Source of the DNA: a virus
Length of the DNA: 64,000 bases
Virus record (IMG/VR): IMGVR_UViG_3300035698_007246
Coordinates: 1 to 64,000 of that record
Strand: one strand, 5' to 3'
Positions 4,355 through 62,156 of this stretch are shown here, piece by piece (positions within the stretch are counted from its first letter, which is position 1; each line of letters starts with the position of its first letter). The position numbers and the translations under genes were made by a program. The notes beneath the pieces are model-generated. The model was not told the origin of the DNA. It saw only the letters and a list, made by a program, of their open reading frames with translations, and ran no database searches.

Positions 4355-4383
4355 TTGACATTGCTTTCCCCATGAACTATATT
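4355..4383 (+). promoter_or_regulatory. sigma70-like promoter (TTGACA-N17-TATATT)
   Basis: TTGACA at 4355-4360, 17-nt spacer, TATATT at 4378-4383. One member of the promoter family repeated through this window. Confidence 0.55.
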
Positions 4384-4409
4384 GTTCTTTTAAAATGATG
4401 GAGAAAATT

Positions 4410-6302
4410 ATGTCTGAAACGTTTAAAGTGTTTAAAGAAGAGTTTGAACTTATTGAATCTATTGACGATAAGATTAAAATTTTAGTAGTTTTTATTGTTG
4501 GGTGTTCCAATGAATATTATGATGATAATTCCAGTCCAGTATCAGATTTTGAATTTGATACAATATGTGAATGGTTAGAAAATATTGACCCCGAAAATGA
4601 AATATTGACCAAGACTGGCTTTGGGTATGAAGTTGGTAAAGATGGAATAAAACATCCATATCATGAAATTGTAGGAATCAGTAATAAAATCAATATCACT
4701 GAGGGGGATATTGTAAATAATGGTGACGCAACAATTAGTTCAAAATATGATGGATGTTCTTTAGAACACTATTATAAGAATAATTATTATTATATGTCAA
4801 TAACCCGTGGTAAAGAAGGTATTGGTAAGGATGTGACCGTTGCTTCACGTAAAAAAGTTCCTCATGAAATTGAAAGATTTCGTGGATATATTCGAGTTGA
4901 AGGAGTTGTCTCTTATACAAATTTCAAGAAATTTCCTGATGGTATGAGAATTCGTAATGCAGTATCTGGTGTTATTGGTGCTAAAACATTGAAACATGAT
5001 TTATTGGAACTCATTGATTTTATTCCTGTTTCTGTTTATAATGCTGATGATGACATTATTTATCATCCAGATACTCAAAAATTTCATGAATATACTAAAG
5101 GGTTTAAGATATGTCCTATTCTACGAGTTGTTGATGGTGATATTAAATTAGATAATGAATTACTTGATAGTATTCGGGAAGATTATGCAGTTGATGGTTT
5201 TGTGTGTTATAAAGACAATGATATTCTTTGTGCTTACAAATACCCAAATGAATATGCTTATCCAAAAGTATTATCAGTTGAATCTAAAACTCAACCAACT
5301 GGTAAAATATTTCCATCTTCTATTCATATTGAACCTACAGAGATATCTGATTGCGTTACTAGTAAGGTGACTGGCAAATCCGGTGAAACTGTTATCAATG
5401 GGAAAATTGGACCTGGTGCTGTGATTGAAATTGTTCGGTCTGGTGAGGTTGTTCCTAATTGGACTAAAAATGTAATTAAAGAATCTGATGATGTGTGGGA
5501 ACCTCATTGTTCTTATGGGTGTGATGATAAATATATCAAGTGGGTTAAAGCAAATTGTTATTGTACGAACCCGGAATGTCCATCTGTTTTTGAAGCGATT
5601 GTTGATAAAACATTACGTCAATTTGCCCCAAAGGGGTTTTCTGATGATATGAGTGATATGGTTATAGAGCATATGAAGAATTGGGTTACAGGTACTGAGT
5701 TGAATGTATTAGAAATGTTTTTAGAATATATGTGTATTCATTATCGTGGATGGGATGGTGGAACTGTTTATCAGAAAAAATTGATTGATGAAACATTTAA
5801 GGTTCTAATTAAAAAAGAAATGACTCTTTATGACCTTGTGACTGTTTGTTCTATTGAAGCATTTGGTAAATCCCTTTCAAGAGATTTGGAACCTAAGTTA
5901 CATGAGTGGACTAAAGGAGCTGGATGTGTTGATAGGGTTAGTTATATATTGATGAATAGAAAGGAATTTACTTCTGACGAAGTGAACAATTCAAAGGCTC
6001 GTGAATCATGGAAGAAAAGACATCACATATTATATAAGATGATGGAAGTTTTTGATATTATTCTTCCCGAAATTAAAGCAGTTGGTAAGAATGGAACTGT
6101 ATGTATTAGTGGAAATCTTCCATCGGGAACGAAGAAGAAAGCGTTTGTCCCTGAAATCGAACAGAGAGGGTACTCTTGGGTCGAATCTCTTAAGAAGGAT
6201 ACCACAATACTTATTTGTGCTAATCTGGCTTCAAATAAGGCTAATAAAGCCAGAAAGAATAAAATAGCTACTATGAGTGAAGAGGAGTTTTTAGCGTTAT
6301 GA
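4410..6302 (+). CDS. ligA: NAD-dependent DNA ligase (LigA-like)
   Basis: KYDGCSL adenylation motif (KxDG). LigA-type zinc finger CYCTNPECP (compare C-TNP-x-CP). C-terminal BRCT-like segment (VCISGNLPSGTKKKAF...ATMSEEEFLAL). Start chosen at ATG after GGAGAAAA RBS, downstream of the promoter. Confidence 0.6.
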   Translation: MSETFKVFKEEFELIESIDDKIKILVVFIVGCSNEYYDDNSSPVSDFEFDTICEWLENIDPENEILTKTGFGYEVGKDGIKHPYHEIVGISNKINITEGDIVNNGDATISSKYDGCSLEHYYKNNYYYMSITRGKEGIGKDVTVASRKKVPHEIERFRGYIRVEGVVSYTNFKKFPDGMRIRNAVSGVIGAKTLKHDLLELIDFIPVSVYNADDDIIYHPDTQKFHEYTKGFKICPILRVVDGDIKLDNELLDSIREDYAVDGFVCYKDNDILCAYKYPNEYAYPKVLSVESKTQPTGKIFPSSIHIEPTEISDCVTSKVTGKSGETVINGKIGPGAVIEIVRSGEVVPNWTKNVIKESDDVWEPHCSYGCDDKYIKWVKANCYCTNPECPSVFEAIVDKTLRQFAPKGFSDDMSDMVIEHMKNWVTGTELNVLEMFLEYMCIHYRGWDGGTVYQKKLIDETFKVLIKKEMTLYDLVTVCSIEAFGKSLSRDLEPKLHEWTKGAGCVDRVSYILMNRKEFTSDEVNNSKARESWKKRHHILYKMMEVFDIILPEIKAVGKNGTVCISGNLPSGTKKKAFVPEIEQRGYSWVESLKKDTTILICANLASNKANKARKNKIATMSEEEFLAL

Positions 6303-6712
6303 AAATGACTAAAAAATATTTAATAGGTATTGTAGTGTGGATTGTTATATCTGCTATTATAATTATTTCAAGTGTTTCAAAACAGGAACCAATTAAAACT
6401 GTTGTGGTGTATGATACAATTAAAGTTGTGTTTGATGATTTGAAATTTGTAGATTTTAAACAAACAGTTGATAGGTTATATTGTCGTTCTGGTAAATTTG
6501 AGATTTTTTCATCCGTGAAGAGTAGGGAATATGACCCATTTAATAATGATTCTATATACCAAATCTATACAATTGTTGTTTTTGAGAAAGGTTCTTGGGT
6601 GAATTATCGTAGTGGTCAATGTAAGAATGGAGAAAAATCAATAATTATTCGAAGACAATTTGATGGTGCAAAGAATTGGTTGAAAACTAAATTGGGGGAC
6701 TATAAAAATTGA
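6299..6712 (+). CDS. membrane-anchored hypothetical protein
   Basis: N-terminal hydrophobic helix (YLIGIVVWIVISAIIIISS). Start overlaps upstream stop. Confidence 0.45.
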   Translation: MKMTKKYLIGIVVWIVISAIIIISSVSKQEPIKTVVVYDTIKVVFDDLKFVDFKQTVDRLYCRSGKFEIFSSVKSREYDPFNNDSIYQIYTIVVFEKGSWVNYRSGQCKNGEKSIIIRRQFDGAKNWLKTKLGDYKN

Positions 6713-7032
6713 AATTAGGTGAGCTGTGCAGACAAGTAGAAGATTTAGAATTGACCGGGGTAGTTTTAATTCCATATAAAAAGACAACTATGTATGTTGA
6801 ACGTATCAGTCAATTCGGTATAATTCCTGTGGTAACAATTAGATTTTCAGAATCTGGTATTGCAACAGGAATTTCTGTCGAAAATTTCCAGGAGGTTATT
6901 CGTGAATTGGTTTCTAATGCTCCGGGTTGGACAAATTATGTTGATATTGAACTTTGGTATGGAGAGGAAAAATGTTATTCGTTAAATGAAACATATCAAG
7001 ACCATGAAAATTTATATTTGTGTATTGGATGA
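6709..7032 (+). CDS. hypothetical protein
   Basis: TTG start overlapping upstream TGA. Translational coupling. Confidence 0.4.
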   Translation: MKLGELCRQVEDLELTGVVLIPYKKTTMYVERISQFGIIPVVTIRFSESGIATGISVENFQEVIRELVSNAPGWTNYVDIELWYGEEKCYSLNETYQDHENLYLCIG

Positions 7033-7047
7033 TGTATAAATATTAGC

Positions 7048-7644
7048 ATGAAAACACAAATATTAAAATTAGACAAACTGAGCAATGTGCTCAAAAAAAG
7101 ACTCGATGATGCAGAGAAAGATATTGAAGCTGGTAACTACAAATCATTTTCTACTGTTGATGAGTTTATGGTAGAAATTACGAGACCGAGACCGTGGCAG
7201 ACACGTCTTAAATGGCGTATGGAACGATACTATGAAGATTGGGTTTCACCAAGCACATGGTATTACAGGTGCCGTAGATTTTATCTATGGTTTTTTAAAT
7301 GGGGATTTGACCCATATGATATCTGGTCATTGGACTATTCAACTGCGAAGTGGATATTACCTCGACTTAAAAAATTAAAAGAAATTAAGTCTGGGGTTCC
7401 TGTGGTTATGTTTGATAATAGAGAATTGTTTAAGGCATATGTGGCAGAACATGGACTCATATATTATAGTGAGGAAGACCGAGCTGAAGTTTTATGGGAG
7501 TTTGTTTTAGATAAAATGATTGAAGGCTTTGAACTCACGATTGAAGATGACTGGGGAAAGTCTGGTGGGTATATCCAACATTGTGAAAAGATTCAGGAAT
7601 GTATGGGTTATTTTGTAAAATATTTTTATTGTTTATGGGATTAA
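7048..7644 (+). CDS. hypothetical protein
   Basis: 198-aa ORF, W/Y-rich, no motif recognised. Confidence 0.45.
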   Translation: MKTQILKLDKLSNVLKKRLDDAEKDIEAGNYKSFSTVDEFMVEITRPRPWQTRLKWRMERYYEDWVSPSTWYYRCRRFYLWFFKWGFDPYDIWSLDYSTAKWILPRLKKLKEIKSGVPVVMFDNRELFKAYVAEHGLIYYSEEDRAEVLWEFVLDKMIEGFELTIEDDWGKSGGYIQHCEKIQECMGYFVKYFYCLWD

Positions 7645-9093: not shown

Positions 9094-9096
9094 TGC

Positions 9097-9130
9097 TGAA
9101 GTAAATTGCTTCAGACAATTTTGAAGTAAA
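9097..9130 (+). repeat. intergenic hairpin repeat copy 1 (TGCTTCAG..CAATTTGAAG family)
   Basis: GCTGAAGtaaattGCTTCAGACAATTTTGAAG immediately after a stop codon. Shares its core with three further copies downstream. Confidence 0.5.
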
Positions 9131-9239
9131 TGTTAATAGCAAGAAAGTAAAATAAAGGTTGCCTGGAATAAAGTAGACTTCAGAGCAACCTAAAAATAAC
9201 ACTTAATTTGCAAACTTCAGTTTTGTAGAAAGGATTGTT

Positions 9240-9419
9240 ATGAAAGAAATTTTTAAAAACATATTACAAACAATAGCATGGATGTTGATATTTGATTATT
9301 TCATTTATTTCCAGGCAAAAAGAAAATGTATGAAAAAAGTTGAGAATGTGTTTGATTGGCTTGGTGGTATATTAATGTTACTGTTTATAATATGTGGATT
9401 AATTTGGATTTGGATGTAA
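9240..9419 (+). CDS. small membrane protein (59 aa)
   Basis: Below the ORF-track cutoff. Two hydrophobic segments. Followed by hairpin repeat copy 2. Confidence 0.3.
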   Translation: MKEIFKNILQTIAWMLIFDYFIYFQAKRKCMKKVENVFDWLGGILMLLFIICGLIWIWM

Positions 9420-9423
9420 GATA

Positions 9424-9460
9424 ATGCTGAATTAATTTTCTTCAGAAAAATTGAATGAAA
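9424..9460 (+). repeat. intergenic hairpin repeat copy 2
   Basis: GCTGAATTAATTTTCTTCAGAAAAATTGAATG. Same CTGAA/TTCAG stem and downstream AATTTGAA core. Confidence 0.45.
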
Positions 9461-9468
9461 GGTTATAA

Positions 9469-9620
9469 TGGACCAAGGAACTGTAATAATTAAAAATATT
9501 GAATTACCAGAGAATACAGAAATTTGTATTGATGATATTCATTTTACAGAGGAAACTCTGGCAGAAATTTTGGGACTACAAAGAGATGAAGTTAAAATTG
9601 AATATGATGAAATTGTATAA
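9469..9620 (+). CDS. small hypothetical protein (50 aa)
   Basis: Micro-ORF between repeat copies 2 and 3. RBS AAGGAA upstream. Confidence 0.3.
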
Positions 9621-9656
9621 CCCATGGTTAAACTGCTTCAGTCAGTTTGGAGCGTT
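9621..9656 (+). repeat. intergenic hairpin repeat copy 3
   Basis: CCCATGGTTAAACTGCTTCAGTCAGTTTGGAGCG. Near-identical to copy 4 (CCCATGGTTAAAATGCTTCAGCCAATTTGAAGCA). Confidence 0.55.
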
Positions 9657-9689
9657 TGTTATAAATTTGAAATTAAAGGAAGAGATAAA

Positions 9690-9848
9690 ATGACTTTTGA
9701 AAAATGGTTTAATGAATTGGGCAGCAAAAAGCCGCTAAATAATAGTGAAGATATTAAAGAGATGGCAAAATCAGCTTTTGCAGCTGGGATGATAACAGCA
9801 AAAATACAAGAGATTAATTATCTTTTAGAAAACAAGGGTGATGTATAA
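9690..9848 (+). CDS. small hypothetical protein (52 aa)
   Basis: ATG after AAGGAAGAG RBS. Stop TAA followed directly by repeat copy 4. Confidence 0.35.
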   Translation: MTFEKWFNELGSKKPLNNSEDIKEMAKSAFAAGMITAKIQEINYLLENKGDV

Positions 9849-9883
9849 CCCATGGTTAAAATGCTTCAGCCAATTTGAAGCAA
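9848..9883 (+). repeat. intergenic hairpin repeat copy 4
   Basis: CCCATGGTTAAAATGCTTCAGCCAATTTGAAGCAATGG. Stem TGCTTCA/TGAAGCA. Confidence 0.55.
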
Positions 9884-9918
9884 TGGTTATAATTTAAATT
9901 TAAAAGAAAGTAGGAGAC

Positions 9919-14603: not shown

Positions 14604-14859
14604 AGACCTCAACATTTTTAATATATTTATTAAAGATGGAATTCAATTATTTGTTAAACATGATTTGAGGTTGTTTAAAAATGTTAAATCATTAGAACCA
14701 CTATATATGATGGTTGGTATGGTAGAAAAATTTAAACAACAAATATTGGATAGGGTCGAATATATTGAAACCGGTGAAGAAATGGGTGAAGACCTTGATT
14801 TTGATGAGGATATCACTGGATTGTTTGGTGATGGAAACGATAATTGGAATTTAGATTAA
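14590..14859 (+). CDS. hypothetical acidic protein
   Basis: Overlapping start. D/E-rich C-terminus. Confidence 0.4.
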   Translation: MGENKDLNIFNIFIKDGIQLFVKHDLRLFKNVKSLEPLYMMVGMVEKFKQQILDRVEYIETGEEMGEDLDFDEDITGLFGDGNDNWNLD

Positions 14860-14865
14860 AAACTA

Positions 14866-14894
14866 TTGACAAAACCTTTCCCATGTATTATATT
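14866..14894 (+). promoter_or_regulatory. sigma70-like promoter (TTGACA-N17-TATATT)
   Basis: AACTATTGACAAAACCTTTCCCATGTATTATATT. Conserved family member. Confidence 0.55.
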
Positions 14895-14937: not shown

Positions 14938-15162
14938 ATGCAAGAAGAGCAATTAAGAAAAATAGATATTATCCCCGGGCATATTAATTGGTGTGTTATA
15001 TCTGACGCTATTAAAAAACCAGAAATGCAATTTGAAAATAAAACTGGTGAGACAGCACGTATTGCTGCTATTGTAAGAAGACCAATAGTTGCTAATTATT
15101 TAATAGTTGTGACATTTATTGATGAAAACTGGTCTACAGTTGATGTATTTGAAAAAAAATAA
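14938..15162 (+). CDS. hypothetical protein
   Basis: 74-aa ORF downstream of promoter. Confidence 0.4.
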   Translation: MQEEQLRKIDIIPGHINWCVISDAIKKPEMQFENKTGETARIAAIVRRPIVANYLIVVTFIDENWSTVDVFEKK

Positions 15163-15169
15163 AAAAAGT

Positions 15170-15198
15170 CTTGACAACGAATGTGTCAGGAATTATAT
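15170..15198 (+). promoter_or_regulatory. sigma70-like promoter (TTGACA-N17-TATATT)
   Basis: GTCTTGACAACGAATGTGTCAGGAATTATATT. Confidence 0.5.
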
Positions 15199-15247
15199 TA
15201 AATGGGTCGAAATTAAGGATGTTTAAAAATTTTCAAAGGAGGTGTGC

Positions 15248-15541
15248 ATGATTATTGTTAAATTATTGATGTTTGCTCTTTTCATTTTTCTTGTTATCAA
15301 AGCGATTAAGTTTGGTATTAAAAAAAACAAACAGATTGACCGAGATTTTGATGTTAAAGAACGAATGGAAACTATTCAGGAAGTTGACAAATCAGCAAAA
15401 GAAGTTGATGACTATAAAGTCAAAAATGCTGATACAATTAAAAACCAAAAAGATAACGAAAAAACCATTAATGATTTCAAAAATGGTGTTGTTGATGAAC
15501 CTAAATTGGAACCTGAAGTTGTAAAAGATAAAGTAAGTTAA
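15248..15541 (+). CDS. small membrane-anchored charged protein
   Basis: AAGGAGG RBS then ATG. N-terminal TM helix then K/E/D-rich tail. Confidence 0.45.
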   Translation: MIIVKLLMFALFIFLVIKAIKFGIKKNKQIDRDFDVKERMETIQEVDKSAKEVDDYKVKNADTIKNQKDNEKTINDFKNGVVDEPKLEPEVVKDKVS

Positions 15542-15616
15542 AACACATAGATTTATTGTTAGAGAAGTATTGAACGAAGTATATTAATTGAAGTTAAATT
15601 TATCAAAGGAGTTTTT

Positions 15617-16813
15617 ATGAACTTTAAACAAATTTTGAAAATTGGTGTGTGGGTGGTTATCGGTATAGTGGTAATTGTATTACTCGTTGGCGGGACTTCT
15701 ATGTGGGAGAAAGTCAAAAATACCGAGTATGTAATGCATGAGTCTGCCTTTTCGGGAGAATTGACATCATGGAACACCCCCGGGTGGAAGAAACAGATGT
15801 TTGGTGGTCTTACAAAATACAATAAGACTTATCCAATTTACTTATCTTCAGATAAACTTGATGGTGGTGAAGGTGCCAACGTTCAGGCTGTAAAAGTATT
15901 GTTTCCTGATGGTAATGCCGGTGTAGATATTGCTGGTAGATTCAGATTACCCACAAGCAAAAAATTACAAAAGAAATTACATATTGATTATTCAGGTGAC
16001 CCTGGTGCTGTTGTTTCTATGGTTCGTCAACAATTATTGGAAGCTGCTAAAGCTGCCGGTCCATTGATGTCTTCAGCAGAGGCATACTCTGATAGAAGAG
16101 CTGATTTTATTAAATTCATTCTGGCACAAGCTCATGATGGGATTTACAAAGCGAACAAAACTATCACAACATCTAAGGATAATAATGGTAATGACATTGA
16201 AACTATTACTTATGACGTTGAACGTGATTCTCAACATAACCCAATTATAACTAAACCATCAATTTTGAAGACTTATGGTATTGTGATTTATGAATTTAAT
16301 GTTAAAGACATGGATTTCGACGATAAGACTGAAGCATTGATTAACGCTCGTAAAGAAGCTCAAAAAGCAAAACAGGACGCTATAACGGCAAAGCAGAAGG
16401 GAGAAGCTCTTATCGCAACAGAAAAAGCTACATATGAAGTTGAGAAAATGAGAGAAATTACAATTGCACAAAAAGAAAAAGAAGTTGCGGTATTGAATGC
16501 TCAAAGAGAACGTGATGTTGCTAAATTGAATGCTGATAAAGCAAAACAAGAAGCACTTGGTACGGTAAGAGCTGCTACTGCAAAGAAACAAGAATTGGCT
16601 CTTGCTGATGGTCTGTCAGAACGAGCGAAGTATGAAATTGATAAAAGAACTGAAGCAACTATCGAATCTGCAAAATATTACTCAAAATGGGTAGGACCTC
16701 AAATTGTGGTAAACGGTACAGGTGGTAAAGGTGGAAGTGGACTTGGTGATGTGTTAATGCTTGAAAGATACCAATCTATGTTGGCAAATGGTATTAACGG
16801 GCAAACAAAATAG
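15617..16813 (+). CDS. SPFH/band-7 (flotillin/HflK-like) membrane protein
   Basis: N-terminal TM helix. Long A/E/K-rich coiled region (EAQKAKQDAITAKQKGEALIATEKATYEVEKMREI...) typical of flotillin/HflK C-terminal segments. Confidence 0.5.
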   Translation: MNFKQILKIGVWVVIGIVVIVLLVGGTSMWEKVKNTEYVMHESAFSGELTSWNTPGWKKQMFGGLTKYNKTYPIYLSSDKLDGGEGANVQAVKVLFPDGNAGVDIAGRFRLPTSKKLQKKLHIDYSGDPGAVVSMVRQQLLEAAKAAGPLMSSAEAYSDRRADFIKFILAQAHDGIYKANKTITTSKDNNGNDIETITYDVERDSQHNPIITKPSILKTYGIVIYEFNVKDMDFDDKTEALINARKEAQKAKQDAITAKQKGEALIATEKATYEVEKMREITIAQKEKEVAVLNAQRERDVAKLNADKAKQEALGTVRAATAKKQELALADGLSERAKYEIDKRTEATIESAKYYSKWVGPQIVVNGTGGKGGSGLGDVLMLERYQSMLANGINGQTK

Positions 16814-16838: not shown

Positions 16839-16875
16839 AGAAAAAAGACATAGCTTAGAGCTATGTCTTTTTTGT
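16839..16875 (+). terminator. rho-independent terminator
   Basis: AAGACATAGCT/AGCTATGTCTT palindrome followed by TTTTTTG. Confidence 0.65.
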
Positions 16876-18008: not shown

Positions 18009-18046
18009 TTTATAATATATTATTTATACAAATTTTGAATTAGGTA

Positions 18047-18075
18047 TTGACTTTTTATAAACAATTAATTATATT
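18047..18075 (+). promoter_or_regulatory. sigma70-like promoter (TTGACT-N17-TATATT)
   Basis: GTATTGACTTTTTATAAACAATTAATTATATT. Confidence 0.5.
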
Positions 18076-18106
18076 TTAAGTTTAATTATTTTGAAAGGTA
18101 ATTTGA

Positions 18107-18607
18107 TTGACTAAAGTAATAAAAATAATCAGTGGGGGGCAATGTGGGTCCGATTCCGGTGGGTTGGCAGCGGCTTATGATTTGGGTATAGAAACAGGTG
18201 GAACTGCTCCTAAAAATTTTAGAACTAAATATGGTTCGAATCCTAAATTGAAAGCTCTGGGGTTGGTTGAACATAAATCATGGGAATACAAACCCAGAAC
18301 TTGGGATAATGTGCAAAATTCTGATGGAACCATTCGTTTTGCGTATGACTTTGAGTCTCCGGGTGAACGGGACACATTGGCAGCAATAATGAAATATACA
18401 AAGCCACATCTTGATATTGATTTAAAAGAACTTGAGATGGGGCATTATCTCCCATTCGACTTCACTGAATTCATAGACGAATATCAAATTTCAGTTCTAA
18501 ACGTTGCTGGTAATGGTGGAAAGGGTAGAGAAGAGTCTTCAAAGATTTTTAGTCTTGTGAGGAGGTATATGAAAATTTGGTTAGGATTTTGTAATAAGGA
18601 TGGATGA
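18107..18607 (+). CDS. SLOG-superfamily (YpsA / putative MoCo-carrier-like) protein
   Basis: IISGGQCGSDSGGLAAAYDLGIETGGTAPKNFRT resembles the GGQTGxD...GGxCPKGR signature of YpsA-like SLOG Rossmann domains. TTG start. Confidence 0.4.
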   Translation: MTKVIKIISGGQCGSDSGGLAAAYDLGIETGGTAPKNFRTKYGSNPKLKALGLVEHKSWEYKPRTWDNVQNSDGTIRFAYDFESPGERDTLAAIMKYTKPHLDIDLKELEMGHYLPFDFTEFIDEYQISVLNVAGNGGKGREESSKIFSLVRRYMKIWLGFCNKDG

Positions 18608-21715: not shown

Positions 21716-21718
21716 CTC

Positions 21719-21747
21719 TTGACATCGTTTTCCCCATTAATTATATT
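21719..21747 (+). promoter_or_regulatory. sigma70-like promoter (TTGACA-N17-TATATT)
   Basis: CTCTTGACATCGTTTTCCCCATTAATTATATT. Confidence 0.55.
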
Positions 21748-21790
21748 ATTATAAAATTGAAAGGGTGAAATTTAATTCTGGAGGTTATGT

Positions 21791-40749: not shown

Positions 40750-40788
40750 AAATCCCCCTGAATTAATTTTAGGGGGATTTCTTTTTAT
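40750..40788 (+). terminator. rho-independent terminator
   Basis: AAATCCCCCT...AGGGGGATTT followed by CTTTTT. Confidence 0.7.
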
Positions 40789-40815
40789 GGTGGTCAAATA
40801 AAAATAAAATAAGTC

Positions 40816-40844
40816 TTGACATTGATTTGACCAAATATTATATT
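40816..40844 (+). promoter_or_regulatory. sigma70-like promoter (TTGACA-N17-TATATT)
   Basis: GTCTTGACATTGATTTGACCAAATATTATATT. Confidence 0.55.
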
Positions 40845-46820: not shown

Positions 46821-46869
46821 ATAATTATCTATATGTGACACATTATCATTTCTTGAATTATGAATTAAT

Positions 46870-46990
46870 TTAATGATTAGATTTAATTAAATTTTCTTCT
46901 GCGGTTAAAATTTGTAAATTAGAATAATGAAAACAATGTTGTTGCTCTTCAGGCTTTGATAAATTAAAAGAAGTACATGGTTTAACGTGG
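46870..46990 (-). pseudogene. C-terminal fragment of HNH homing endonuclease
   Basis: Encodes only IDHVKPCTSFNLSKPEEQQHCFHYSNLQILTAEENLIKSNH. About 80% nt identity to the 3' end of the HNH pseudogene at 59966-60544. Confidence 0.45.
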
Positions 46991-47240
46991 TCAATATAAT
47001 ACAAAAGGAGAAGTTGATAAATGGAAACGGAAACAGAAAAATTAAAAGAAAATGATTGCAAGTTAACCGACGCTAAAGGAGTAGTTGTGAAAACATTTAG
47101 ATTGCAGAAAATATTGGGAATATTTGGAAATGCTTTAATGATTTATTTGTTGCTTGGGTTTGTGGAACCAAATCGAATGTTTCAAGTTGCATTAATGTTG
47201 GGATGTTTTGGATATGTTAATGCAACGATTTGGAGAAATT

Positions 47241-50611: not shown

Positions 50612-50769
50612 GTTATATTTTTTAAGCGTAATGCCTTTTGGGTTGGTTATAATGCCATTTATGTTATTAATTGGTGGAACACTTGGGTGGATACTGTTAG
50701 GTATTCAGCTTACACTGTTGGCTGTGCAGTTATGTGCAGCAATTCTTTATGCGAAATCTTAAAAAATCC

Positions 50770-50798
50770 TTGACTTGGATTTAAGAAAATATTAAATT
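50770..50798 (+). promoter_or_regulatory. sigma70-like promoter (TTGACT, -10 TAAATT)
   Basis: TCCTTGACTTGGATTTAAGAAAATATTAAATT. Confidence 0.4.
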
Positions 50799-50813: not shown

Positions 50814-52991
50814 ATGGAGATTGATGTGAAATATATCAAATTTGGTAATGGTTATCTTGTTCAGCAAGAAGTACAAAGCCAAGCAACAACAACTAAGAAG
50901 GTTAAAGAAAAAACGAACCATATTTGGATTTATGATAGAAGTTATTCAATGTCATATGAATTACCCAATATGATTAATCAGTTGGTTACATTGTCGGAGA
51001 ACCTTCCAAAAGGTGATACTATTACTCTTGGCTACTTTTCCAGTGAAGGTGAGTACAAGTTTATCATCAAGGGTTTTAAAATCACTAACAAGGCTGATTA
51101 TGCTTTTCTTGAAGCAACAATCAGAAAGAACTCTCGTCCTATTGGGTGCACATGTTTTAGTGAGATTATTAATGAAACTGATGAAGTCATCGAAGACTTG
51201 TCCTTGTTCTCAAAGACATTCAGTTTTGCTTTCTTTACAGATGGGTATCCTGTGGTTCACAATTACCAAAAAGAGATTGACAATATCAGAATTGGTATTG
51301 ACAAAATCAAAGGTAAGCTCACCACAGCAATGTTTATTGGGTGTGGTCATTTTTACAACAAACCGTTGATGACAAAGATGGCAGAACGTATTGGTGGAAT
51401 GCTCATCCATAATGATTCCATTAAAGAGTTCACTCCTACCATCACTCGTCTTGTTCAACTGTCTGAATCGTCAGAACCTAAGATTGAAGTGAAGTCACCG
51501 TTTGAAAAACCTGTTGCGGTTTACACAGTGACAGACCAAGGTGTCGTACTTAATGATATCGAAGATGGTAAGCTATCAGTTTCACCTGAAACTGGTAAGT
51601 CAGTGAAGTTATACTACATCGTTGATGATGTGAGTGGTCTCGCTGCAAAAAAGGTTACTCCAGTGGAACTTGGAGTTGAAGCTGTTTATGGTGGAACGTT
51701 GGTGTTATGTCAACAGATGAAGACTGATAAGGCAATGGAACTTGTTGGTATTGTTGGTGATAAGTATTTCATTGACAAACTTACAAATGCATTCGTGATT
51801 GACGAATACGGTAAAGTTGAAAATGAATTGAATGATGCTATTCATAACGAAGACGAACGTTTTAAGAATGGTGCTGATAAGAATTATCTCCCTAAGTCTG
51901 ATGCTTTTAATGTTTTTGAGTTACTTAATATATTAAAAGATGATGATAATTCAGTTTTTTATCCTTATGACAAGCGTTTTAAGTATGAAAAGATTTCTAA
52001 GGGAACTGTGCTTGAAGATGGCTATTCAAAATTTAAACCATCTTCTGATAACGAATGTTCTTTTAATGAATTGGTGTGGCATAAGTCAAGACTGAATTTA
52101 TCAGTCAGAATTACATCAAAGGGAACTATTGAGTTACAAGAACGTGATGGTAAGAATGCAGGGGATTATGGTTTTACCCAGATTTTTCCAACATGGGTAT
52201 ATCGAAATTATAGTTTTGTGAAAGATGGTAGACCTAATATTAAAAAGTTTTATGTTGGTACTTCTAAAGAAACGTATGAAACATTGAAGAGTCATGGTAT
52301 TGTAGTTGATGATACATTTAAAAAGAATGGTATTTATGGATTAGATATTTCAAACTTACCTTCTATGAATCGTGGTATGGCAAATGGTAATACAAATGGT
52401 ACTGAACTTTGTAGAAATGTTTATTCTGAATTAGATTTGATGGCTCAATTAAAAGTGTATAAATGGTTTCTTAAAGAAGAATTTCCAGATGATGATAAAG
52501 ACCCAACATCATTTTCAGAAGAGCAGAAAGGATTTCTTGAAGCTAATGGAATTTTGGTTGACAAAGGAGGAGTATATGCACCACCTGTGAAATCTGGAAT
52601 AGAAAGTTTTGATTATTATATGGTTAAGCGTTTCGAAATTAAAGTTAAAAGTTTAACCAGTTTACCATCTTTGAATGCAGTGTACAAGAAATTGAACTCT
52701 GGTAAGAAGTTGACATTATCTGAATCATTATTAAATGAGTCTATTGAAAAGTATGATTCATATAAAGATGACAATGATAGTTTACTTGAAAGGAAAAAGT
52801 ATCTTGAGGATACGATTACTCAATTGAAAATTAAATTGAAACCGATTAGGAATGATATTCAAAAATGTAAATTTGCTATCATACTTGGGAGACAGTGGTT
52901 TCAAGAATTTTCAAGTCGAGAACAAACTCAACTTGAAGTTGATGGTAATACATTTAATTTTCTTTTAAGTGACGAAAAGGTTAAGATATAG
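50814..52991 (+). CDS. large vWA-domain protein
   Basis: N-terminal IWIYDRSYSMS (MIDAS DxSxS) followed by about 500 aa without recognised motif. Confidence 0.4.
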   Translation: MEIDVKYIKFGNGYLVQQEVQSQATTTKKVKEKTNHIWIYDRSYSMSYELPNMINQLVTLSENLPKGDTITLGYFSSEGEYKFIIKGFKITNKADYAFLEATIRKNSRPIGCTCFSEIINETDEVIEDLSLFSKTFSFAFFTDGYPVVHNYQKEIDNIRIGIDKIKGKLTTAMFIGCGHFYNKPLMTKMAERIGGMLIHNDSIKEFTPTITRLVQLSESSEPKIEVKSPFEKPVAVYTVTDQGVVLNDIEDGKLSVSPETGKSVKLYYIVDDVSGLAAKKVTPVELGVEAVYGGTLVLCQQMKTDKAMELVGIVGDKYFIDKLTNAFVIDEYGKVENELNDAIHNEDERFKNGADKNYLPKSDAFNVFELLNILKDDDNSVFYPYDKRFKYEKISKGTVLEDGYSKFKPSSDNECSFNELVWHKSRLNLSVRITSKGTIELQERDGKNAGDYGFTQIFPTWVYRNYSFVKDGRPNIKKFYVGTSKETYETLKSHGIVVDDTFKKNGIYGLDISNLPSMNRGMANGNTNGTELCRNVYSELDLMAQLKVYKWFLKEEFPDDDKDPTSFSEEQKGFLEANGILVDKGGVYAPPVKSGIESFDYYMVKRFEIKVKSLTSLPSLNAVYKKLNSGKKLTLSESLLNESIEKYDSYKDDNDSLLERKKYLEDTITQLKIKLKPIRNDIQKCKFAIILGRQWFQEFSSREQTQLEVDGNTFNFLLSDEKVKI

Positions 52992-53235
52992 ATTCGTTTA
53001 AAATTGATTCAATGTTTTTGAATTTATGATATGGAATTCTGATAAGCTGGATATTGTTTTGTTTACAATATTCAGTTTTGATTTTATCATTATGTTGTGT
53101 TTCTCCACCAAATTGGATAATTGATTTATAATGTTGCACACCGTCATATTCAATGAGTGTACCGTGTTGTAGTAAATAGAAATCAAATGGGAGAGTGGAT
53201 TTATTTTTTACAACCTCTAAATTAACTATTGACAT
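52981..53235 (-). pseudogene. truncated PD-(D/E)xK (Vsr/DUF559-like) homing-endonuclease remnant
   Basis: LPFDFYL...LIEYDGVQH...LIRIPY is homologous to the C-terminal domain of the 11693-12613 product. Lone minus-strand ORF. Its 5' end runs into the + strand promoter. Confidence 0.4.
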
Positions 53236-53257
53236 CACCTATACCATTAATTATATT
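53229..53257 (+). promoter_or_regulatory. sigma70-like promoter (TTGACA-N17-TATATT)
   Basis: ACTATTGACATCACCTATACCATTAATTATATT. Confidence 0.55.
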
Positions 53258-53280: not shown

Positions 53281-53793
53281 ATGAAATATTGTGACTGTGG
53301 TGCAGAGTTACCAACAAATAGACATCGTGTTTGTGATGATTGTAAGAAAAAAAAGAGACGAGAATATGTGGTTGATTATCGTAAAAAGAATATTGATAAA
53401 ATTCGAGAACGAACCAAAGAATATAGTGTTGTGTATTATAAGAAAAATAAAGATAAAATATCAGAATGTGCTAAAAAATATTATGAGAAAAATAAAGATA
53501 AATTTAAAGAATATAGTGATGATTATTATGAGAAAAATAAAGATAAAATATTAGAACGTGATAAAAAATATTATGAGAAAAATAAAGATAAAAAATTAGA
53601 ACGTGTTAAAAAATATTATAAAGACAATAAAGATAAAAAAATAGATTATGATAAAGAATATTATAATAACAATAAAGATAAAATAATAGAACATCATAAA
53701 GAATATCGTAGATTAAAATCAGTCCCATCAAAAGAATATTGGGATTTGAAGGATGAAATAGATTTAACAAAGGAGATGATTAAAAATGGCTAA
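53281..53793 (+). CDS. zinc-ribbon protein with tandem 15-aa KEYYxxNKDKIxERxK repeats (copy 1)
   Basis: N-terminal CDCG...CDDC ribbon, then about 8 tandem 45-nt repeats. C-terminal RRLKSVPSKEYWDL. Paralog of 54005-54595. Confidence 0.5.
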   Translation: MKYCDCGAELPTNRHRVCDDCKKKKRREYVVDYRKKNIDKIRERTKEYSVVYYKKNKDKISECAKKYYEKNKDKFKEYSDDYYEKNKDKILERDKKYYEKNKDKKLERVKKYYKDNKDKKIDYDKEYYNNNKDKIIEHHKEYRRLKSVPSKEYWDLKDEIDLTKEMIKNG

Positions 53794-53795
53794 GA

Positions 53796-53969
53796 AGTTT
53801 TCATTATATAATGAAGCTACAGAATCAATAGAAGCATTGTCCGAAGCAAGAGAATAATTTCGTAAATGTGATATTTCTGTTAACGAAATCAAACAGCATG
53901 TGAATGTTACTAATACTATGAGTAAAGCGATTAAAGCTAAAATTGATGTTGAAAAATTACAACAGGGAT
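53796..53969 (+). pseudogene. disrupted paralog of small gene 54588-54773
   Basis: MAKKFSLYNEATESIEALSEARE then a premature TAA. The downstream homolog segment (ISVNEIKQHVNVTNTMSKAIKAKIDVEKLQQG) is in another frame. Confidence 0.4.
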
Positions 53970-54004: not shown

Positions 54005-54595
54005 ATGAAATATTGTGACTGTGGTGCAGAGTTACCATCAATAAGACATCACATTTGTAGTGATTGTAAGAAAAAAAAGAGGCAACAATATATAGTTGAT
54101 TATCGTAAAAAGAATATTGATAAAATATCAGAATGTGGTAAAGAATATTATAAAAACAATAAAGATAAAATAACAGAACGTCATAAAGGATATTGTGAAA
54201 ACAATAAAGATAAAATATCAAAATGTCATAAAGAATATCGTAATAACAATAAAGATAAAATATCAGAATGTGGTAAAGAATATTATAAAAACAATAAGGG
54301 CGAAATAGTAGAACGAAGTAAAGAATATTATAATAACAATAAAGATAAAATAACAGAACGTAATAAAGGATATCGTGAAAACAATAAAGATAAAATAGCA
54401 GAACGTAATAAAGGATATCGTGAAAACAATAAAGATAAAATAGCAGAACGTAGTAAAGAATATTATAATAACAATAAAGATAAAATAACAGAACGTCATA
54501 AAGGACGTCGTAGATTAAAATCAGTTCCAGTAAAAGAATATTGGGATTTAATAGATGAAATAAATTTAACAAAGGAGTTAATTAAAAATGGCTAA
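54005..54595 (+). CDS. zinc-ribbon protein with tandem 15-aa NKDKI repeats (copy 2)
   Basis: Same architecture as 53281-53793 with about 9 repeats. Confidence 0.5.
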   Translation: MKYCDCGAELPSIRHHICSDCKKKKRQQYIVDYRKKNIDKISECGKEYYKNNKDKITERHKGYCENNKDKISKCHKEYRNNNKDKISECGKEYYKNNKGEIVERSKEYYNNNKDKITERNKGYRENNKDKIAERNKGYRENNKDKIAERSKEYYNNNKDKITERHKGRRRLKSVPVKEYWDLIDEINLTKELIKNG

Positions 54596-54773
54596 GAAAT
54601 TTTCAATAAGTAAAGAATCTGAATTATCAATCCAAGCACTGTCTGAAGCAAGAGAAATGTTTCGTAATGATGAGCTTGATGTTAATCAAGTTAAGCAACA
54701 TATAAATCTTGCGAATGCTATGAGTAAAGCACTAAAGGCAAATGTTGAAATTGAAAAATTGAAACAAGTTTAA
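54588..54773 (+). CDS. small hypothetical protein (intact copy)
   Basis: MAKKFSISKESELSIQALSEAREMF... Overlaps previous stop (ATGGCTAAG within ...AATGGCTAAG). Confidence 0.4.
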   Translation: MAKKFSISKESELSIQALSEAREMFRNDELDVNQVKQHINLANAMSKALKANVEIEKLKQV

Positions 54774-59514: not shown

Positions 59515-59992
59515 AAAACAAAAGAAATTAAAAACAATAGATATTGAACTTGCGATAGTAAATTCTTTATTTAAAGTTAGGCGGTATTTAGTTACTCCTA
59601 ATGTATATTGGGGATTAAATTTTCACTATGAACTTGATATGGTTGTCGTTACGGGTGCTCGTTATGCATATGAGATAGAAATCAAAACAAGTAAAGCTGA
59701 TACTATAAGAGATAAAAAGAAGGCACATCAGCACATATCAAACAAAATCAAGTATCTTTACTTTGCTATACCCGACTATGGTGAAGATTGGATAGAACAT
59801 ATCCCGGAACGAGCTGGGATTATTTTAATTAAAAAGAAAAATAATGGTCATTTATTTGGTGAAATTGTTAGAAAACCTAAAATGAATAAAGGATGTCGAA
59901 AATTAACCGACCAAGAATATATGAAACTTGGTCAGCTAAATTCAATGAGATTATGGAATTTGAAGAAAAAATTAAAGAAGTTGAGTATCTGA
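59495..59992 (+). CDS. PD-(D/E)xK nuclease-fold protein (putative)
   Basis: ELDMVVV ... AYEIEIKTSKAD provides D...E-x-K in the usual spacing. Confidence 0.35.
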   Translation: MAIRKVKKQKKLKTIDIELAIVNSLFKVRRYLVTPNVYWGLNFHYELDMVVVTGARYAYEIEIKTSKADTIRDKKKAHQHISNKIKYLYFAIPDYGEDWIEHIPERAGIILIKKKNNGHLFGEIVRKPKMNKGCRKLTDQEYMKLGQLNSMRLWNLKKKLKKLSI

Positions 59993-60544
59993 TTTAATTA
60001 AGTTGTCTTGAGCTGATAATATCTGAAGATTGGAATAGTGGAAGCATTGTTCCTGCTCTTCAGGTTTAGATAAATCAAAAGAAATACATGGTTTGATATG
60101 GTCAACATGAAATTCTTGACCTGTATAGTTATTAATATCAAAGTCAGTGTATCCATTATCAATTGCGGTTTGTTGGAGATGTTCTTTGAGGTATTCAATT
60201 GAACAGCCTAACAGTTTAATTGTTGAATTTGATTTGTTTTTGCCTTCAAGGGCATACCATATTCTATTTCTTAAATTACATTTTAATTTGTAATTAATAT
60301 CTGACTTACGTTTTTTAATGTTTCTTTTTGATTGCTTTTGATTTAACTTTGTTTTATTTTTATTGTAGTATTGTTTATTGGTGTTTAAAATTTTATTTTT
60401 GTTTTCAACATAATTTTGTTTATGCCAATCTTTTCTACATATTTTGCAGTGGTTTCAATAACCATCTTTAGACGCTTTTCTTTTGTAAAATTCAGAAATG
60501 GGTTTAGTTTGATTGCACTTGGTGCATGTTTTTGTAGTAATCAT
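59966..60544 (-). pseudogene. HNH homing endonuclease with in-frame nonsense codon
   Basis: Minus-strand reading: MITTKTCTKCNQTKPISEFYKRKASKDGY-stop-NHCKICRK...FHVDHIKPCISFDLSKPEEQEQCFHYSNLQILSAQDNLIKSD. TGA where TGG is expected (DGYWNHC). Only non-+ gene of this size. Confidence 0.5.
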
Positions 60545-60665
60545 TGTAGATACTCCCTAATTAAGTTAAAAATAAATGAGAAGTAATCTTTTGAATTAGG
60601 CAAAAGAAATGGCTTGCAATCCACTGTCCTTCTCATATAATTATTTATACAAATTCAAATTAACT

Positions 60666-60695
60666 ATTGACATCATTTACACAATTAATTATATT
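60666..60695 (+). promoter_or_regulatory. sigma70-like promoter (TTGACA-N18-TATATT)
   Basis: ACTATTGACATCATTTACACAATTAATTATATT. Confidence 0.5.
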
Positions 60696-60722: not shown

Positions 60723-61367
60723 GTGGTAGCAAAATGTTCGTATGTGATGCCATACAAAGAAATAACTAAAAAAAAAGAGCATGAATTAATATCAAATATA
60801 AAAACTGGATGTAAAGAATCTGAAAAGGAATTGTTTAATAATAAAATCAATCTTATTATAAAACTCATACAAAAATATTCTTTAAATAGTAATTGGATTG
60901 AAATGAATGACTTAATTCACGAGGCATATTTTGGGTTTAGGAAAGCTGTTGATAAATATAATGGGGAGTTTGCATTCAATACATATCTTCGTCAATGGGT
61001 TATCGCCAAAGCTCAAATGTTTTACCATAGAATCAAAGGTGGTATGAGCAATAAGACTCCGTATGTTAATAAACAGGTGTATATATTTGTTGGTGGGGAT
61101 ACTGGATATGATTTAATGTATTCTGATTACGATACAGAACCTGGATGGATGAGAGAACCTGACCCCATTGATTTTAATAGGTTCACTGAATTAACTAAAG
61201 GTGAACGGAGAGCTATTGATTTATATATTAATAAAAAGAAAACTGTGATTCAGATGGCAAAGGATAGGGGTGTGACGAAACAAGCTATATTTGGTGCGGT
61301 GTTGCGAGCCAAAACTAAATTAAAGAAACATTTTTTAAAAAATGTATTGACATACCCATCCCCATAA
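60723..61367 (+). CDS. sigma-70-family RNA polymerase sigma factor (regions 2 and 4)
   Basis: Region 2-like DLIHEAYFGFRKAVDKYNGEFAFNTYLRQWVIAKAQ. Region 4 HTH-like LTKGERRAIDLYINKKKTVIQMAKDRGVTKQAIFGAVLRAKTKLKK. AGGAGA RBS. Confidence 0.5.
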   Translation: MVAKCSYVMPYKEITKKKEHELISNIKTGCKESEKELFNNKINLIIKLIQKYSLNSNWIEMNDLIHEAYFGFRKAVDKYNGEFAFNTYLRQWVIAKAQMFYHRIKGGMSNKTPYVNKQVYIFVGGDTGYDLMYSDYDTEPGWMREPDPIDFNRFTELTKGERRAIDLYINKKKTVIQMAKDRGVTKQAIFGAVLRAKTKLKKHFLKNVLTYPSP

Positions 61368-61420
61368 CATATCTTTTAATGCGTATTGATTATTGTTGAA
61401 ATTTTAACAAAGGTGGTTCG

Positions 61421-61765
61421 ATGAGTTTTGTTGATAAAGATGGTAATGAAATTGAAACAGGTGATGTAGTTTATAGTATTTCATCTCCAAAGGTTCTTCG
61501 AGTTATTTCTAATGTTGAAGATGACCTTATTGGATTGTCTGATACTATGGATGTGAAAGGTATTCCATTTACCCAGAAAGCATTTCTTAATACAAAATGG
61601 CGTAAAAGGTTATCAACTTTCTTAGACGCTGACGGATATCCAGTATCGGTAAGCGACATCATTTATAATAAACAATTACCCAAATGTGAGAAAATAGTTA
61701 CTATATCATTTGATGATTCTATTATCATTGATGATAATACTACATTGTCTTCAGACCCACATTGA
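61421..61765 (+). CDS. hypothetical protein
   Basis: AAAGGTGG RBS. Confidence 0.4.
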   Translation: MSFVDKDGNEIETGDVVYSISSPKVLRVISNVEDDLIGLSDTMDVKGIPFTQKAFLNTKWRKRLSTFLDADGYPVSVSDIIYNKQLPKCEKIVTISFDDSIIIDDNTTLSSDPH

Positions 61766-61888
61766 TACAATCAAACAGAATTTAAAACATCTCAATGGAG
61801 AAAGAAGTTATATGAATAAATGTCCTGTATGTGGTGAACAATCCGAAGTAACATGTAAATGTCCTGCAAGTGAAAGTGACATGGTAAA

Positions 61889-62119
61889 ATGAAATTAAGA
61901 ACTCATAAAGGTAAATTCGTAACAATGTTCTTTGTGTGGGTGTATGCTATGGTGATGGTATTGCTTGCTCCAAACGGGTACTATGCTATGCGTAAAATAA
62001 TACATAATGATGGGTGGGTGTTAATTGGAGTTATTATTTCCGCGATTCATATAGTAACATTTGGAGTTTTAATTGTCTTCTTAATTATATGTGTTGTAAA
62101 ATGGTATACAAAATTATAA
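61889..62119 (+). CDS. small membrane protein
   Basis: Two TM helices. Confidence 0.4.
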   Translation: MKLRTHKGKFVTMFFVWVYAMVMVLLAPNGYYAMRKIIHNDGWVLIGVIISAIHIVTFGVLIVFLIICVVKWYTKL

Positions 62120-62127
62120 AATAACTA

Positions 62128-62156
62128 TTGACGTCACTTGTGTCATTAATTATATT
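62128..62156 (+). promoter_or_regulatory. sigma70-like promoter (TTGACG-N17-TATATT)
   Basis: ACTATTGACGTCACTTGTGTCATTAATTATATT. Confidence 0.5.

Follow-up and report, generated by a model that had tools for sequence, protein, structure and literature searches.

We describe a family of closely similar promoter-like sequences in a viral genome fragment of 64,000 nucleotides (nt), the whole of which is referred to here as the window (positions 1 to 64,000 of the IMG/VR record IMGVR_UViG_3300035698_007246). The window is 31% G+C with a strong excess of G over C, and its approximately 107 open reading frames (ORFs) are all located on the + strand; neither a tRNA scan nor an Rfam scan of it returned a match. 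Family members combine TTGACA with TATATT, or close variants of these hexamers, at a distance of 17 nt, and they are named below by the position at which TTGAC starts.

Genes of the window

Genes for nucleic acid transactions include those for an NAD-dependent DNA ligase, an RNA ligase, a UvrD helicase, a polynucleotide kinase (PNK)-like P-loop kinase, and a Thg1-like protein. Other predicted products are a metallophosphatase, a kinase-like protein, a nucleoside deoxyribosyltransferase, a thioredoxin, a DUF932 protein, CoaE, an epimerase, and a vWA-like protein of 721 amino acids (aa). Probable counter-defence and repair genes occur between positions 18107 and 43699, and comprise a cpYpsA/SLOG gene (18107-18607), the RNA ligase gene, a Macro-domain gene (22091-22537), the PNK-like kinase gene (28138-28692), an Apyc1-like metallo-beta-lactamase gene (30013-30828), and the Thg1-like gene (35199-35942). 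A complete NAD salvage set is also present, with nicotinamidase at 36363-36989, NAD synthase at 37016-37864, and NAPRTase at 42479-43699. Judged by these predicted products, the gene content appears to be of an early, counter-defence, and nucleotide-metabolism type.

The nearest cultured phages are distant, with best tblastn matches of about 27% identity to PBS1/AR9 and Vi1-like phages. Several metagenome assemblies, among them ENA ERZ27316532 and JGI 3300005935 and 3300031227, contain identical pieces, and relatives of the vWA-like protein are encoded on contigs of up to several hundred kilobases (kb). On these grounds we assign the window to a divergent, uncultured huge-phage lineage. Start codons throughout the window (for example at 18090-18100, 21770-21780, 35990-36000, and 62180-62190) are preceded by a long Shine-Dalgarno (SD) sequence, TT(G/C)AAAGGAG, which is complementary to an extended 3' tail of the 16S rRNA. 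This sequence suggests a host that leans heavily on SD pairing and is therefore probably not a member of the Bacteroidota.

Identification of the promoter family

The exact core TTGACA-N16-18-TATATT matches the window at ten sites, each of which is on the + strand and has a 17-nt spacer; shuffled sequences averaged 0.26 matches and never exceeded 2. A first-pass annotation of this DNA had listed 14 copies, and every one of these is present. Ten carry the exact core and four have one or two hexamer mismatches, namely TTGACT at 18047, TTGACT and TATCTT at 33511, TTGACT and TAAATT at 50770, and TTGACG at 62128. Eleven of the positions given there are right; the remaining three shift by 1-3 nt, placing TTGAC at 15171, 26383, and 60667 instead of 15170, 26386, and 60666.

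A 39-nt weight matrix assigns the copies 23-54 bits, compared with a shuffle maximum of 14.3 bits, and finds zero matches on the minus strand of the window. The scan recovered all 14 listed copies together with a good additional copy at 61347, absent from the first list, and a doubtful one at 40741. Leave-one-out scores are at least 21 bits in 14 of 15 copies, with copy 50770 marginal at 7.9 bits. A generic repeat finder independently retrieved the family as repeat D2 with 13 copies. Beyond the window, a further copy lies 2.6 kb upstream (L005:4112), and a search of the 4.6 kb to the right yielded no family copy.

The copies are located between genes or over the stop codon of the upstream gene, and always on the coding strand (16/16). 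The end of the -10 hexamer is separated from the next + strand start codon, which has a strong SD sequence, by 23-65 nt in every case. The hexamers, the 17-nt spacing, the common orientation, and the position just upstream of genes support the earlier proposal of a single promoter family, and the sequence evidence favors assigning it to the primary-sigma type (-35/17/-10). The core and spacer pattern TTGACA-N11-CATTAATTATATT was also searched in the IMG/VR and JGI metagenomes. It returned 3 and 28 single matches, respectively, all of which fall below the weight-matrix threshold and are attributed to chance, and so it revealed no new relatives.

Conserved positions within the promoters

Information content at each position was measured against the AT-rich intergenic background, with the -10 hexamer numbered -12 to -7. 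The -35 hexamer is close to TTGACA, with TTGAC in 16/16 copies and a sixth base that is A in 12, T in three, and G in one. The -10 hexamer is TATATT in 13 copies, TATCTT in two, and TAAATT in one, so that neither A-11 nor T-7 varies and T occupies the fifth position throughout. This T at -8 is found in 29/29 promoters of the phage and its relatives L044, L049, L050, L054, L065, and L066, and the hexamer is never TATAAT. The spacer is exactly 17 nt in all copies. No TGn extended -10 element (-15 to -13) is found in any of the 16 family copies, where -15 and -14 are mostly AA.

Outside the hexamers, information is carried by A-44/A-43, A-40/A-39, C-38 (1.6 bit), T-37, c-36, and T-29, as well as by C-20 (1.36 bit), C-19 (2.15 bit), A-18 (1.33 bit), and T-17 (0.56 bit). 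The upstream segment is generally A-rich back to about -50, in agreement with an A/T-rich UP element (-40 to -60), although its distal part shows no position-specific conservation. Downstream of -7, the alignment of the copies shows no conservation in a fixed register. The flanking conservation noted in the first-pass annotation is thus real but narrower than claimed, being confined to the positions listed here. The exact string CCATTAATTATATT is found in three copies, and the string AACTATTGACAT defines a subfamily of about five. The flanks c-T-c-TTGACA-t also resemble the classical Escherichia coli consensus 'tcTTGACat', reportedly given in the compilations of Hawley and McClure in 1983 and of Harley and Reynolds in 1987. 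In the literature, the extended -35 string TCTTGACAT was matched by primers only.

The only constrained part of the spacer is the block [C/A]CCAT at -21 to -17. Its last three bases, CAT at -19 to -17, are present in 11/16 copies, compared with 1.4% per position in intergenic DNA (P ~1e-17). An element 'CCATTAATT' had been proposed here, which would extend the block by TAAT towards the -10 hexamer. CCAT is indeed constrained, but positions -16 to -13 carry only 0.4-0.6 bit.

Three further candidate elements were considered and set aside. A downstream or leader motif, significant under the one-occurrence-per-sequence (OOPS) model (129 bits versus 106 +/- 4 in shuffled sequences), proved to be the extended SD sequence TTGAAAGGAG and not a promoter element. 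A dyad operator CCA-N10-TGG around the -10 hexamer is found in only 5/16 copies, and we rejected it as a feature of the family at large. An overlapping promoter of the extracytoplasmic function (ECF)-like type, AAC(-40..-38)-N17-CCA(-20..-18), was rejected because its two blocks do not covary across copies.

Promoter copies and predicted transcription units

The intervals given here run from -45 to -7 on the + strand, and bit values are leave-one-out scores. Copy 4355 (4345-4383; 41 bits) reads AAAAAACTG-TTGACA-N17(CCCAT)-TATATT and precedes the NAD-dependent DNA ligase gene (4410-6302). It is followed by copy 14866 (14856-14894; TTGACA-N17(CCCAT)-TATATT; 34 bits), located before a 74-aa ORF, and by copy 15171 (15161-15199; cTTGACA-N17(GTCAG)-TATATT; 32 bits), located before a 97-aa ORF and an SPFH/Band7 gene. 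Copy 18047 (18037-18075; TTGACT-N17(ACAAT)-TATATT; 21 bits) precedes the cpYpsA/SLOG and RNA ligase genes. The best match to the consensus is copy 21719 (21709-21747; AAAATAACTC-TTGACA-N17(CCCAT)-TATATT; 52 bits), which stands before a 99-aa ORF and the Macro-domain and metallophosphatase genes. A gene for a kinase-like protein of 565 aa follows copy 26383 (26373-26411; TTGACA-N17(GTCAT)-TATATT; 30 bits). In copy 30825 (30815-30853; TTGACA-N17(CCCAT)-TATATT; 38 bits) the -35 hexamer overlies the stop codon of the Apyc1-like gene, and the next gene encodes the nucleoside deoxyribosyltransferase-like protein. Copy 33511 (33501-33539; TTGACT-N17(AACAT)-TATCTT; 31 bits) precedes the DUF932 gene.

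The NAD salvage genes are associated with two copies. Copy 35946 (35936-35974; TTGACA-N17(ACCAT)-TATATT; 40 bits) lies before a 110-aa ORF that is followed by the nicotinamidase, NAD synthase, and AAA genes, and copy 40816 (40806-40844; TTGACA-N17(ACCAA)-TATATT; 40 bits) lies before a 350-aa ORF and the block extending from NAPRTase to UvrD. The marginal copy 50770 (50760-50798; TTGACT-N17(AGAAA)-TAAATT; 7.9 bits) precedes the 721-aa vWA-like gene. Copy 53229 (53219-53257; AATTAACTA-TTGACA-N17(ACCAT)-TATATT; 47 bits) precedes the gene for a 170-aa tandem-repeat protein, and copy 60667 (60657-60695; AATTAACTA-TTGACA-N17(ACAAT)-TATATT; 41 bits) lies directly before a gene for a phage sigma factor. 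The newly recognized copy 61347 (61337-61375; TTGACA-N17(CCCAT)-TATCTT; 26 bits) has its -35 hexamer in the final codons of the sigma gene and precedes a 114-aa ORF, and copy 62128 (62118-62156; AAATAACTA-TTGACG-N17(GTCAT)-TATATT; 40 bits) precedes a 148-aa ORF.

Strong intrinsic terminators on the + strand are few. One at 4142-4177 (free energy, dG, of -17.5) ends about 180 nt before promoter 4355; another at 16841-16873 (dG -16.9) follows the SPFH gene and ends the unit begun at 14866/15171. The strongest, at 40749-40781 (dG -21.7), lies 35 nt before promoter 40816, and one at 53044-53078 (dG -14.1) separates the vWA-like gene from promoter 53229. Altogether, strong terminators stand upstream of only 4355, 40816, 53229, and perhaps 50770, with unit-closing ones at 16841-16873 and near 34457, and seven promoters start 4-9 nt past the preceding stop codon. 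More than 13 transcription units had been proposed for the region in the first-pass annotation. The 15-16 start points agree with that number. However, because only about four of them follow a strong terminator and seven lie just behind the previous stop codon, the transcripts are probably nested and co-directional, with read-through, rather than forming 13 insulated units.

The doubtful copy 40741 (40731-40769; +) reads TTGACA-N17-TAATTT, and its spacer and -10 hexamer coincide with the 5' arm and loop of the terminator hairpin at 40749-40781. This arrangement of promoter within hairpin is kept in a relative with 77% identity (L065:5117-5160, with the promoter at L065:5127), directly upstream of the counterpart of the genuine promoter 40816. 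Copy 40741 could be a degenerate family member or a promoter occluded by the terminator.

Conservation in related phages

Promoters of the same design are found in several relatives. L044, whose vWA-like protein is 56% identical, is syntenic with the window and includes an orthologous promoter before the vWA-like gene; this counterpart of copy 50770 (L044:9933) has TTGACA, CCCAA, and TAATTT. L065, whose AAA protein is 77% identical, carries orthologues of promoters 35946 (L065:384) and 40816 (L065:5200), and L049, whose sigma factor is 66% identical, carries an orthologue of 61347 (L049:3643). A single copy is found in L066 (48%), and L054 (47%) has five copies of AAAACTC-TTGACT-N17/18-TATATT. 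Since L044, L049, L054, L065, and L066 all carry copies of this design, the extended -35 element (AACTc-TTGAC) and TATATT are clade-wide.

The CCAT block follows a different distribution. CAT is present in register in 5/13 promoters of relatives, and in only one of the five L054 copies. In the orthologous promoters 35946 and L065:384, TTGACA, CCAT, and TATATT are kept, the 5' half of the spacer differs at 7/9 positions, and TAAT is replaced by AAAC. This pair provides a phylogenetic footprint of CCAT and not of the longer 'CCATTAATT'.

Similarity beyond the hexamers could instead reflect common descent of duplicated or recombined cassettes, of the kind that Arbiol and colleagues reportedly described in 2010 for T4 (PeSL mobile cassettes, in which an early promoter is joined to a stem-loop). 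On this view CCAT and AACT are relics. The strings shared between copies fit such a history: AATTAACTATTGACAT is common to 26383, 53229, 60667, 62128, and 14866, and TATACAAA occurs near -55 in 18047, 60667, and 62128 (repeat family D4). However, the 5' half of the spacer and the sequence past -7 are randomized between copies while specific positions stay fixed, and the orthologues at 77% aa identity keep CCAT while adjoining bases have changed. A strong hairpin is found within 200 nt upstream in only 4/16 copies, and those hairpins are unrelated in sequence. We therefore regard common descent as an improbable explanation of the conserved positions.

Relatives were also sought through the vWA-like protein. 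A scan of IMG/VR proteins with the single sequence gave no matches; a scan with an alignment gave 13 loci, of which only L054, L059, and L052 have sigma-70-like promoter sets. The labels of metagenome-assembled genomes that contain relatives at 38-39% identity (Acidobacteria, Clostridia, and Blastocatellia) are uninformative with respect to the host. Relatives of the vWA-like protein at 38-46% identity are found on very long contigs, namely L071 (JBDIBI010000001.1; 946,942 bp; labelled Blastocatellia), P0087 (548 kb), and P0050 (497 kb), which are either very large phage genomes or an indication that the gene also resides in bacterial chromosomes or prophages.

The CCAT spacer block

The conserved block lies between 9 and 5 nt upstream of the -10 hexamer (-22 to -18 when counted from the transcription start), which is the location of the Z-element. 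This element has been mapped to -22 to -18 of the T7 A1 promoter (AACCT), with AACAT at the same place in T7 A2, and exerts its effect via the beta' zipper of the RNA polymerase (RNAP) core in enzymes from Thermus, E. coli, and B. subtilis (Yuzenkova et al. 2011, PMC3173786). In the T7 genome (NC_001604) the A1 and A2 Z-elements end 4 nt before the -10 hexamer, as [C/A]CCAT does before TATATT. The exact sequence AACAT is found in the Z register at 33511 in the window and in two relatives (L066:8532 and L054:21939). The consensus [C/A]CCAT shares CAT with T7 A2, and C-19 and T-17 with both T7 promoters, although the published Z consensus is itself loose.

This coincidence of register suggests that CCAT is most likely a spacer contact of RNAP that, like the T7 A1 and A2 Z-elements read by the beta' zipper, would aid the promoters in competing for polymerase. 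Recognition by the RNAP core or by sigma is accordingly our first candidate, at somewhat less than even chances. A separate protein factor, which the first-pass annotation had suggested from the conservation of the spacer, seems unlikely as the reader, and the remaining probability belongs to DNA shape or other effects. An additional factor is not required, because CCAT occupies the position of a contact with the RNAP core. The suggestion keeps some force, in that the conservation is stronger than that of the loose Z consensus and is specific to a sublineage.

An additional protein could act in more than one way. Host primary sigma would read the promoters, and CCAT, with or without AAC at -40 to -38, would bind an activator that is injected or made early by the phage, or else a repressor responsible for early shutoff. 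CCAT is selected independently of the hexamers, and more strongly than would be expected of a loose Z-element beside perfect hexamers (PMC3173786). It is present in the window, L065, L049, and L044 but mostly missing from L054, whose promoters are otherwise of the same design, and this distribution fits a lineage-specific factor. T4 offers a precedent, in that phage factors, Alt among them, modulate some of its early promoters by way of positions that lie outside the canonical elements (PMC2988021). However, only three or four bases are constrained, and they lack dyad symmetry, the inverted repeat CCA...TGG being confined to 5/16 copies; across the copies, AAC(-40..-38) and CCA(-20..-18) do not visibly covary. 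The sigma factor aside, the window yielded no candidate DNA-binding protein, and the block sits at a known contact of the RNAP core. Taken together, these observations make binding of an extra protein a minority possibility.

CCAT, perhaps together with the invariant T at -8, may also be a lineage-specific mark by which the phage distinguishes its own early promoters, recognized either by a spacer-binding phage or injected factor or through a near-obligatory RNAP contact. We give this idea rather low probability. If the contact with RNAP were near-obligatory, the family would be the first natural one to conserve a Z-type element as strongly as its hexamers.

The phage sigma factor and the proposed course of early transcription

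The gene directly downstream of copy 60667 (60723-61367; +) encodes a minimal sigma-70-family factor of 214 aa. It scores 27 bits against Pfam Sigma70_r2 (cutoff 24) and 48.8 against TIGR02937 (cutoff 42.9), and matches phrog_351 at 1e-17. Its scores are far below the cutoff of every RpoD/SigA model, and only region 2 aligns to solved sigmas. Close homologues are rare, with only two in a database of 5.8 billion proteins, and relatives of the phage encode one or two sigma-70-family proteins. In L044 the corresponding place is occupied by two tandem sigma-like genes (15007-16357). A promoter class that this factor might read was not found in the window.

The presence of the gene raises the question of whether the phage sigma, on host core enzyme, could itself read the family, in which case the promoters would be middle, late, or autoregulated. 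The invariant T at -8 and the extra conserved positions could mean a non-host specificity, and a copy before the sigma gene would permit positive autoregulation; the sigma-70-family proteins of the phage and its relatives supply a possible reader. However, the hexamers, spacing, and flanks are of the group-1 sigma type, and the 214-aa protein reaches only a generic superfamily cutoff. Characterized phage sigmas of this size (SPO1 gp28 and gp34, and T4 gp55) read non-canonical motifs. Expression of the sigma gene from the family would itself require a starter, and the genes behind the copies are early-type. Recognition by the phage sigma is therefore distinctly improbable.

A second phage-encoded reader can be imagined in a virion-packaged multisubunit RNAP such as those of AR9/PBS1 and phiKZ-like phages, for which the AT-rich AATTATATT would be the key element. 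The AR9 early consensus is AAATATATATTAT-N6-G (Lavysh et al. 2017, PMC5312081), and it resembles the AATTATATT(AT) of several copies; in addition, the best cultured-phage matches of the vWA-like protein are to PBS1/AR9, at 27% identity. However, promoters of virion RNAPs lack a TTGAC at 17 nt, which is invariant here. Positions -6/-5, where AR9 requires AT, and -16 to -13 are weakly constrained or not constrained, and L065:384 has AAACTATATTGA. Pfam annotation of approximately 75 kb of the phage and approximately 200 kb of relatives' loci contains no genes resembling those for RNAP beta or beta', and the sigma-70-family genes imply use of the host core. A virion RNAP thus seems very improbable as the reader.

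We consider it likely that the family consists of strong promoters for host RNAP carrying its primary (sigma-70/SigA-type) sigma, that they fire early, and that the spacer block is Z-element-like. Four elements are joined in each copy: a proximal, UP-element-like A-rich segment (AAAATAA at about -46 to -39), the extended -35 element cTc-TTGACA-t, a spacer of exactly 17 nt, and TATATT. The promoters would most likely fire immediately after infection, sending co-directional transcription into early-type blocks that include DNA and RNA ligases, the NAD salvage set, the Macro, Apyc1-like, and Thg1-like counter-defence genes, and a helicase. Copy 60667 would drive the phage sigma, which presumably moves host core enzyme to later promoters. 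Because that sigma is minimal, pre-existing host holoenzyme would have to start the cascade. Given the family copy in front of the sigma gene and the early-type genes behind the promoters, the simplest scheme is one in which host primary sigma acts first at the family and the phage sigma acts later at a different promoter class, a logic shared with T4 and SPO1.

Several points weigh against this assignment. The hexamers are near-perfect for a group-1 sigma, but the comparison is with the general consensus and not with a promoter set of the host. The T at -8 exceeds, in its invariance, what a generic sigma-70 -10 element requires, and the TGn of T4 early promoters has no counterpart in the family. 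CCAT is missing from most L054 promoters despite their having the same extended -35 element and TATATT. Moreover, Z-element effects are modest, at less than 2-fold per single substitution, with little effect in Thermus RNAP where -35 and -10 are strong (PMC3173786). As the published element is loose and modest, the strong conservation of CCAT beside perfect hexamers is not obviously predicted. Finally, the approximately 75 kb seen belong to a probably larger genome (>200 kb), and phage RNAP genes might lie elsewhere in it.

Other repeats and small ORFs

Several repeats other than the promoter family were observed. A repeat unit of 45 nt (15 aa) recurs about 13 times in tandem (D1; 53344-53823 and 54011-54625; +) within the adjacent ORFs 53281-53793 and 54005-54595, neither of which has family matches. 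A 138-nt direct repeat with 75% identity (D3; 46860-46997 and 59971-60108) lies in two long 'empty' intergenic gaps; it has no Rfam match and may be a non-coding element or RNA. The 99-nt direct repeat D5 (39574-39672 and 52999-53097; 72% identity) follows a large gene in each case, and its second copy holds the hairpin at 53044-53078. Small minus-strand ORFs in D3 and D5 were considered as hidden genes and rejected, as their translations are not homologous. An 85-aa minus-strand ORF at 52981-53238 has sub-threshold matches to DUF2726/DUF5889 (endonuclease-like) and would be the sole candidate minus-strand gene in the window.

An intergenic cassette with 80% identity (D9; 9614-9682 and 9842-9910) lies between tandem small ORFs in the region 9094-9918 and has the layout CCCATGGTTAAA-hairpin(GCTTCAG...TTGAAGC)-TGnTATAA-like -10. 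It may be a second promoter type, with an extended -10 element, or a terminator module. Lastly, a 46-nt direct repeat with 96% identity (D17; 42687-42732 and 43047-43092) has copies 360 nt apart inside the NAPRTase gene. Such a repeat is unusual within a coding region, and either an internal duplication or an artefact of assembly could account for it.

Comparison with known promoter systems

Strong host-sigma early promoters are already usual in large phages as a means of early RNAP capture, and the family does not overturn current understanding; the conserved CCAT in the spacer is the less usual detail. The family provides a first, predicted transcription map of an uncultured huge-phage lineage, with about 16 early starts, a handful of terminators, and early control of a sigma gene, and this map can guide annotation and the search for a later class of promoters dependent on the phage sigma. 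It may also be viewed as a natural experiment in promoter optimization, in which fixed non-hexamer positions stand beside drifting neighbors. The CCAT copies form a ready set of sequences bearing on whether spacer contacts by the RNAP core are a real, selected promoter element, and the promoters themselves are candidate strong and compact parts (~45 nt) for low-GC hosts.

The early promoters of T4 likewise have consensus positions beyond the canonical elements, and they out-compete host promoters (Hinton 2010, PMC2988021). Both the T4 Pe 'uber' UP/-35/TGn/-10 promoters and the present family consist of many co-oriented sigma-70-type promoters, far better than average, before early genes. They share an A/T-rich upstream region and extra consensus positions, the family would likewise serve to out-compete host promoters, and in T4, as predicted for the present phage, early products include factors that reprogram RNAP for later classes. 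In contrast to T4 Pe, the family lacks TGn (0/16), has TATATT rather than TATAAT as its -10 hexamer, and carries the additional block CCAT at -21 to -17. The later switch would presumably depend on a sigma-70-family phage sigma here, whereas T4 uses AsiA/MotA and gp55. The family also differs from the T4 PeSL cassettes, in that promoter and stem-loop are coupled in only 4/16 copies.

The closest likeness for the spacer block is the Z-element of T7 A1 and A2, which is similarly a C-containing block of 5 nt ending 4 nt before the -10 hexamer (AACCT and AACAT, compared with [C/A]CCAT); the present promoters, like those of T7, are probably strong early promoters used by host RNAP. The published Z consensus is loose and its effects are modest, whereas the family block reaches 2.15 bits beside perfect hexamers.

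In the SPO1 cascade, early promoters are read with host SigA, and gp28 and then gp33/34 serve the later classes. SPO1 (PMC13401047) and the present phage are both large and would share strong early promoters of the host-primary-sigma type and an early-encoded phage sigma for later classes. However, SPO1 early promoters cluster in the terminal redundancy, whereas the family copies are scattered across at least 65 kb of genes that all lie on one strand. The virion-RNAP promoters of AR9 and phiKZ resemble the family in being highly conserved AT-rich motifs with TATATT, of which a giant phage carries tens of copies. They differ in that AR9 promoters have no -35 element, require TATATTAT-N6-G, and are used by a phage multisubunit RNAP, whereas the family has TTGACA at 17 nt in a phage of which about 75 kb show no RNAP genes.

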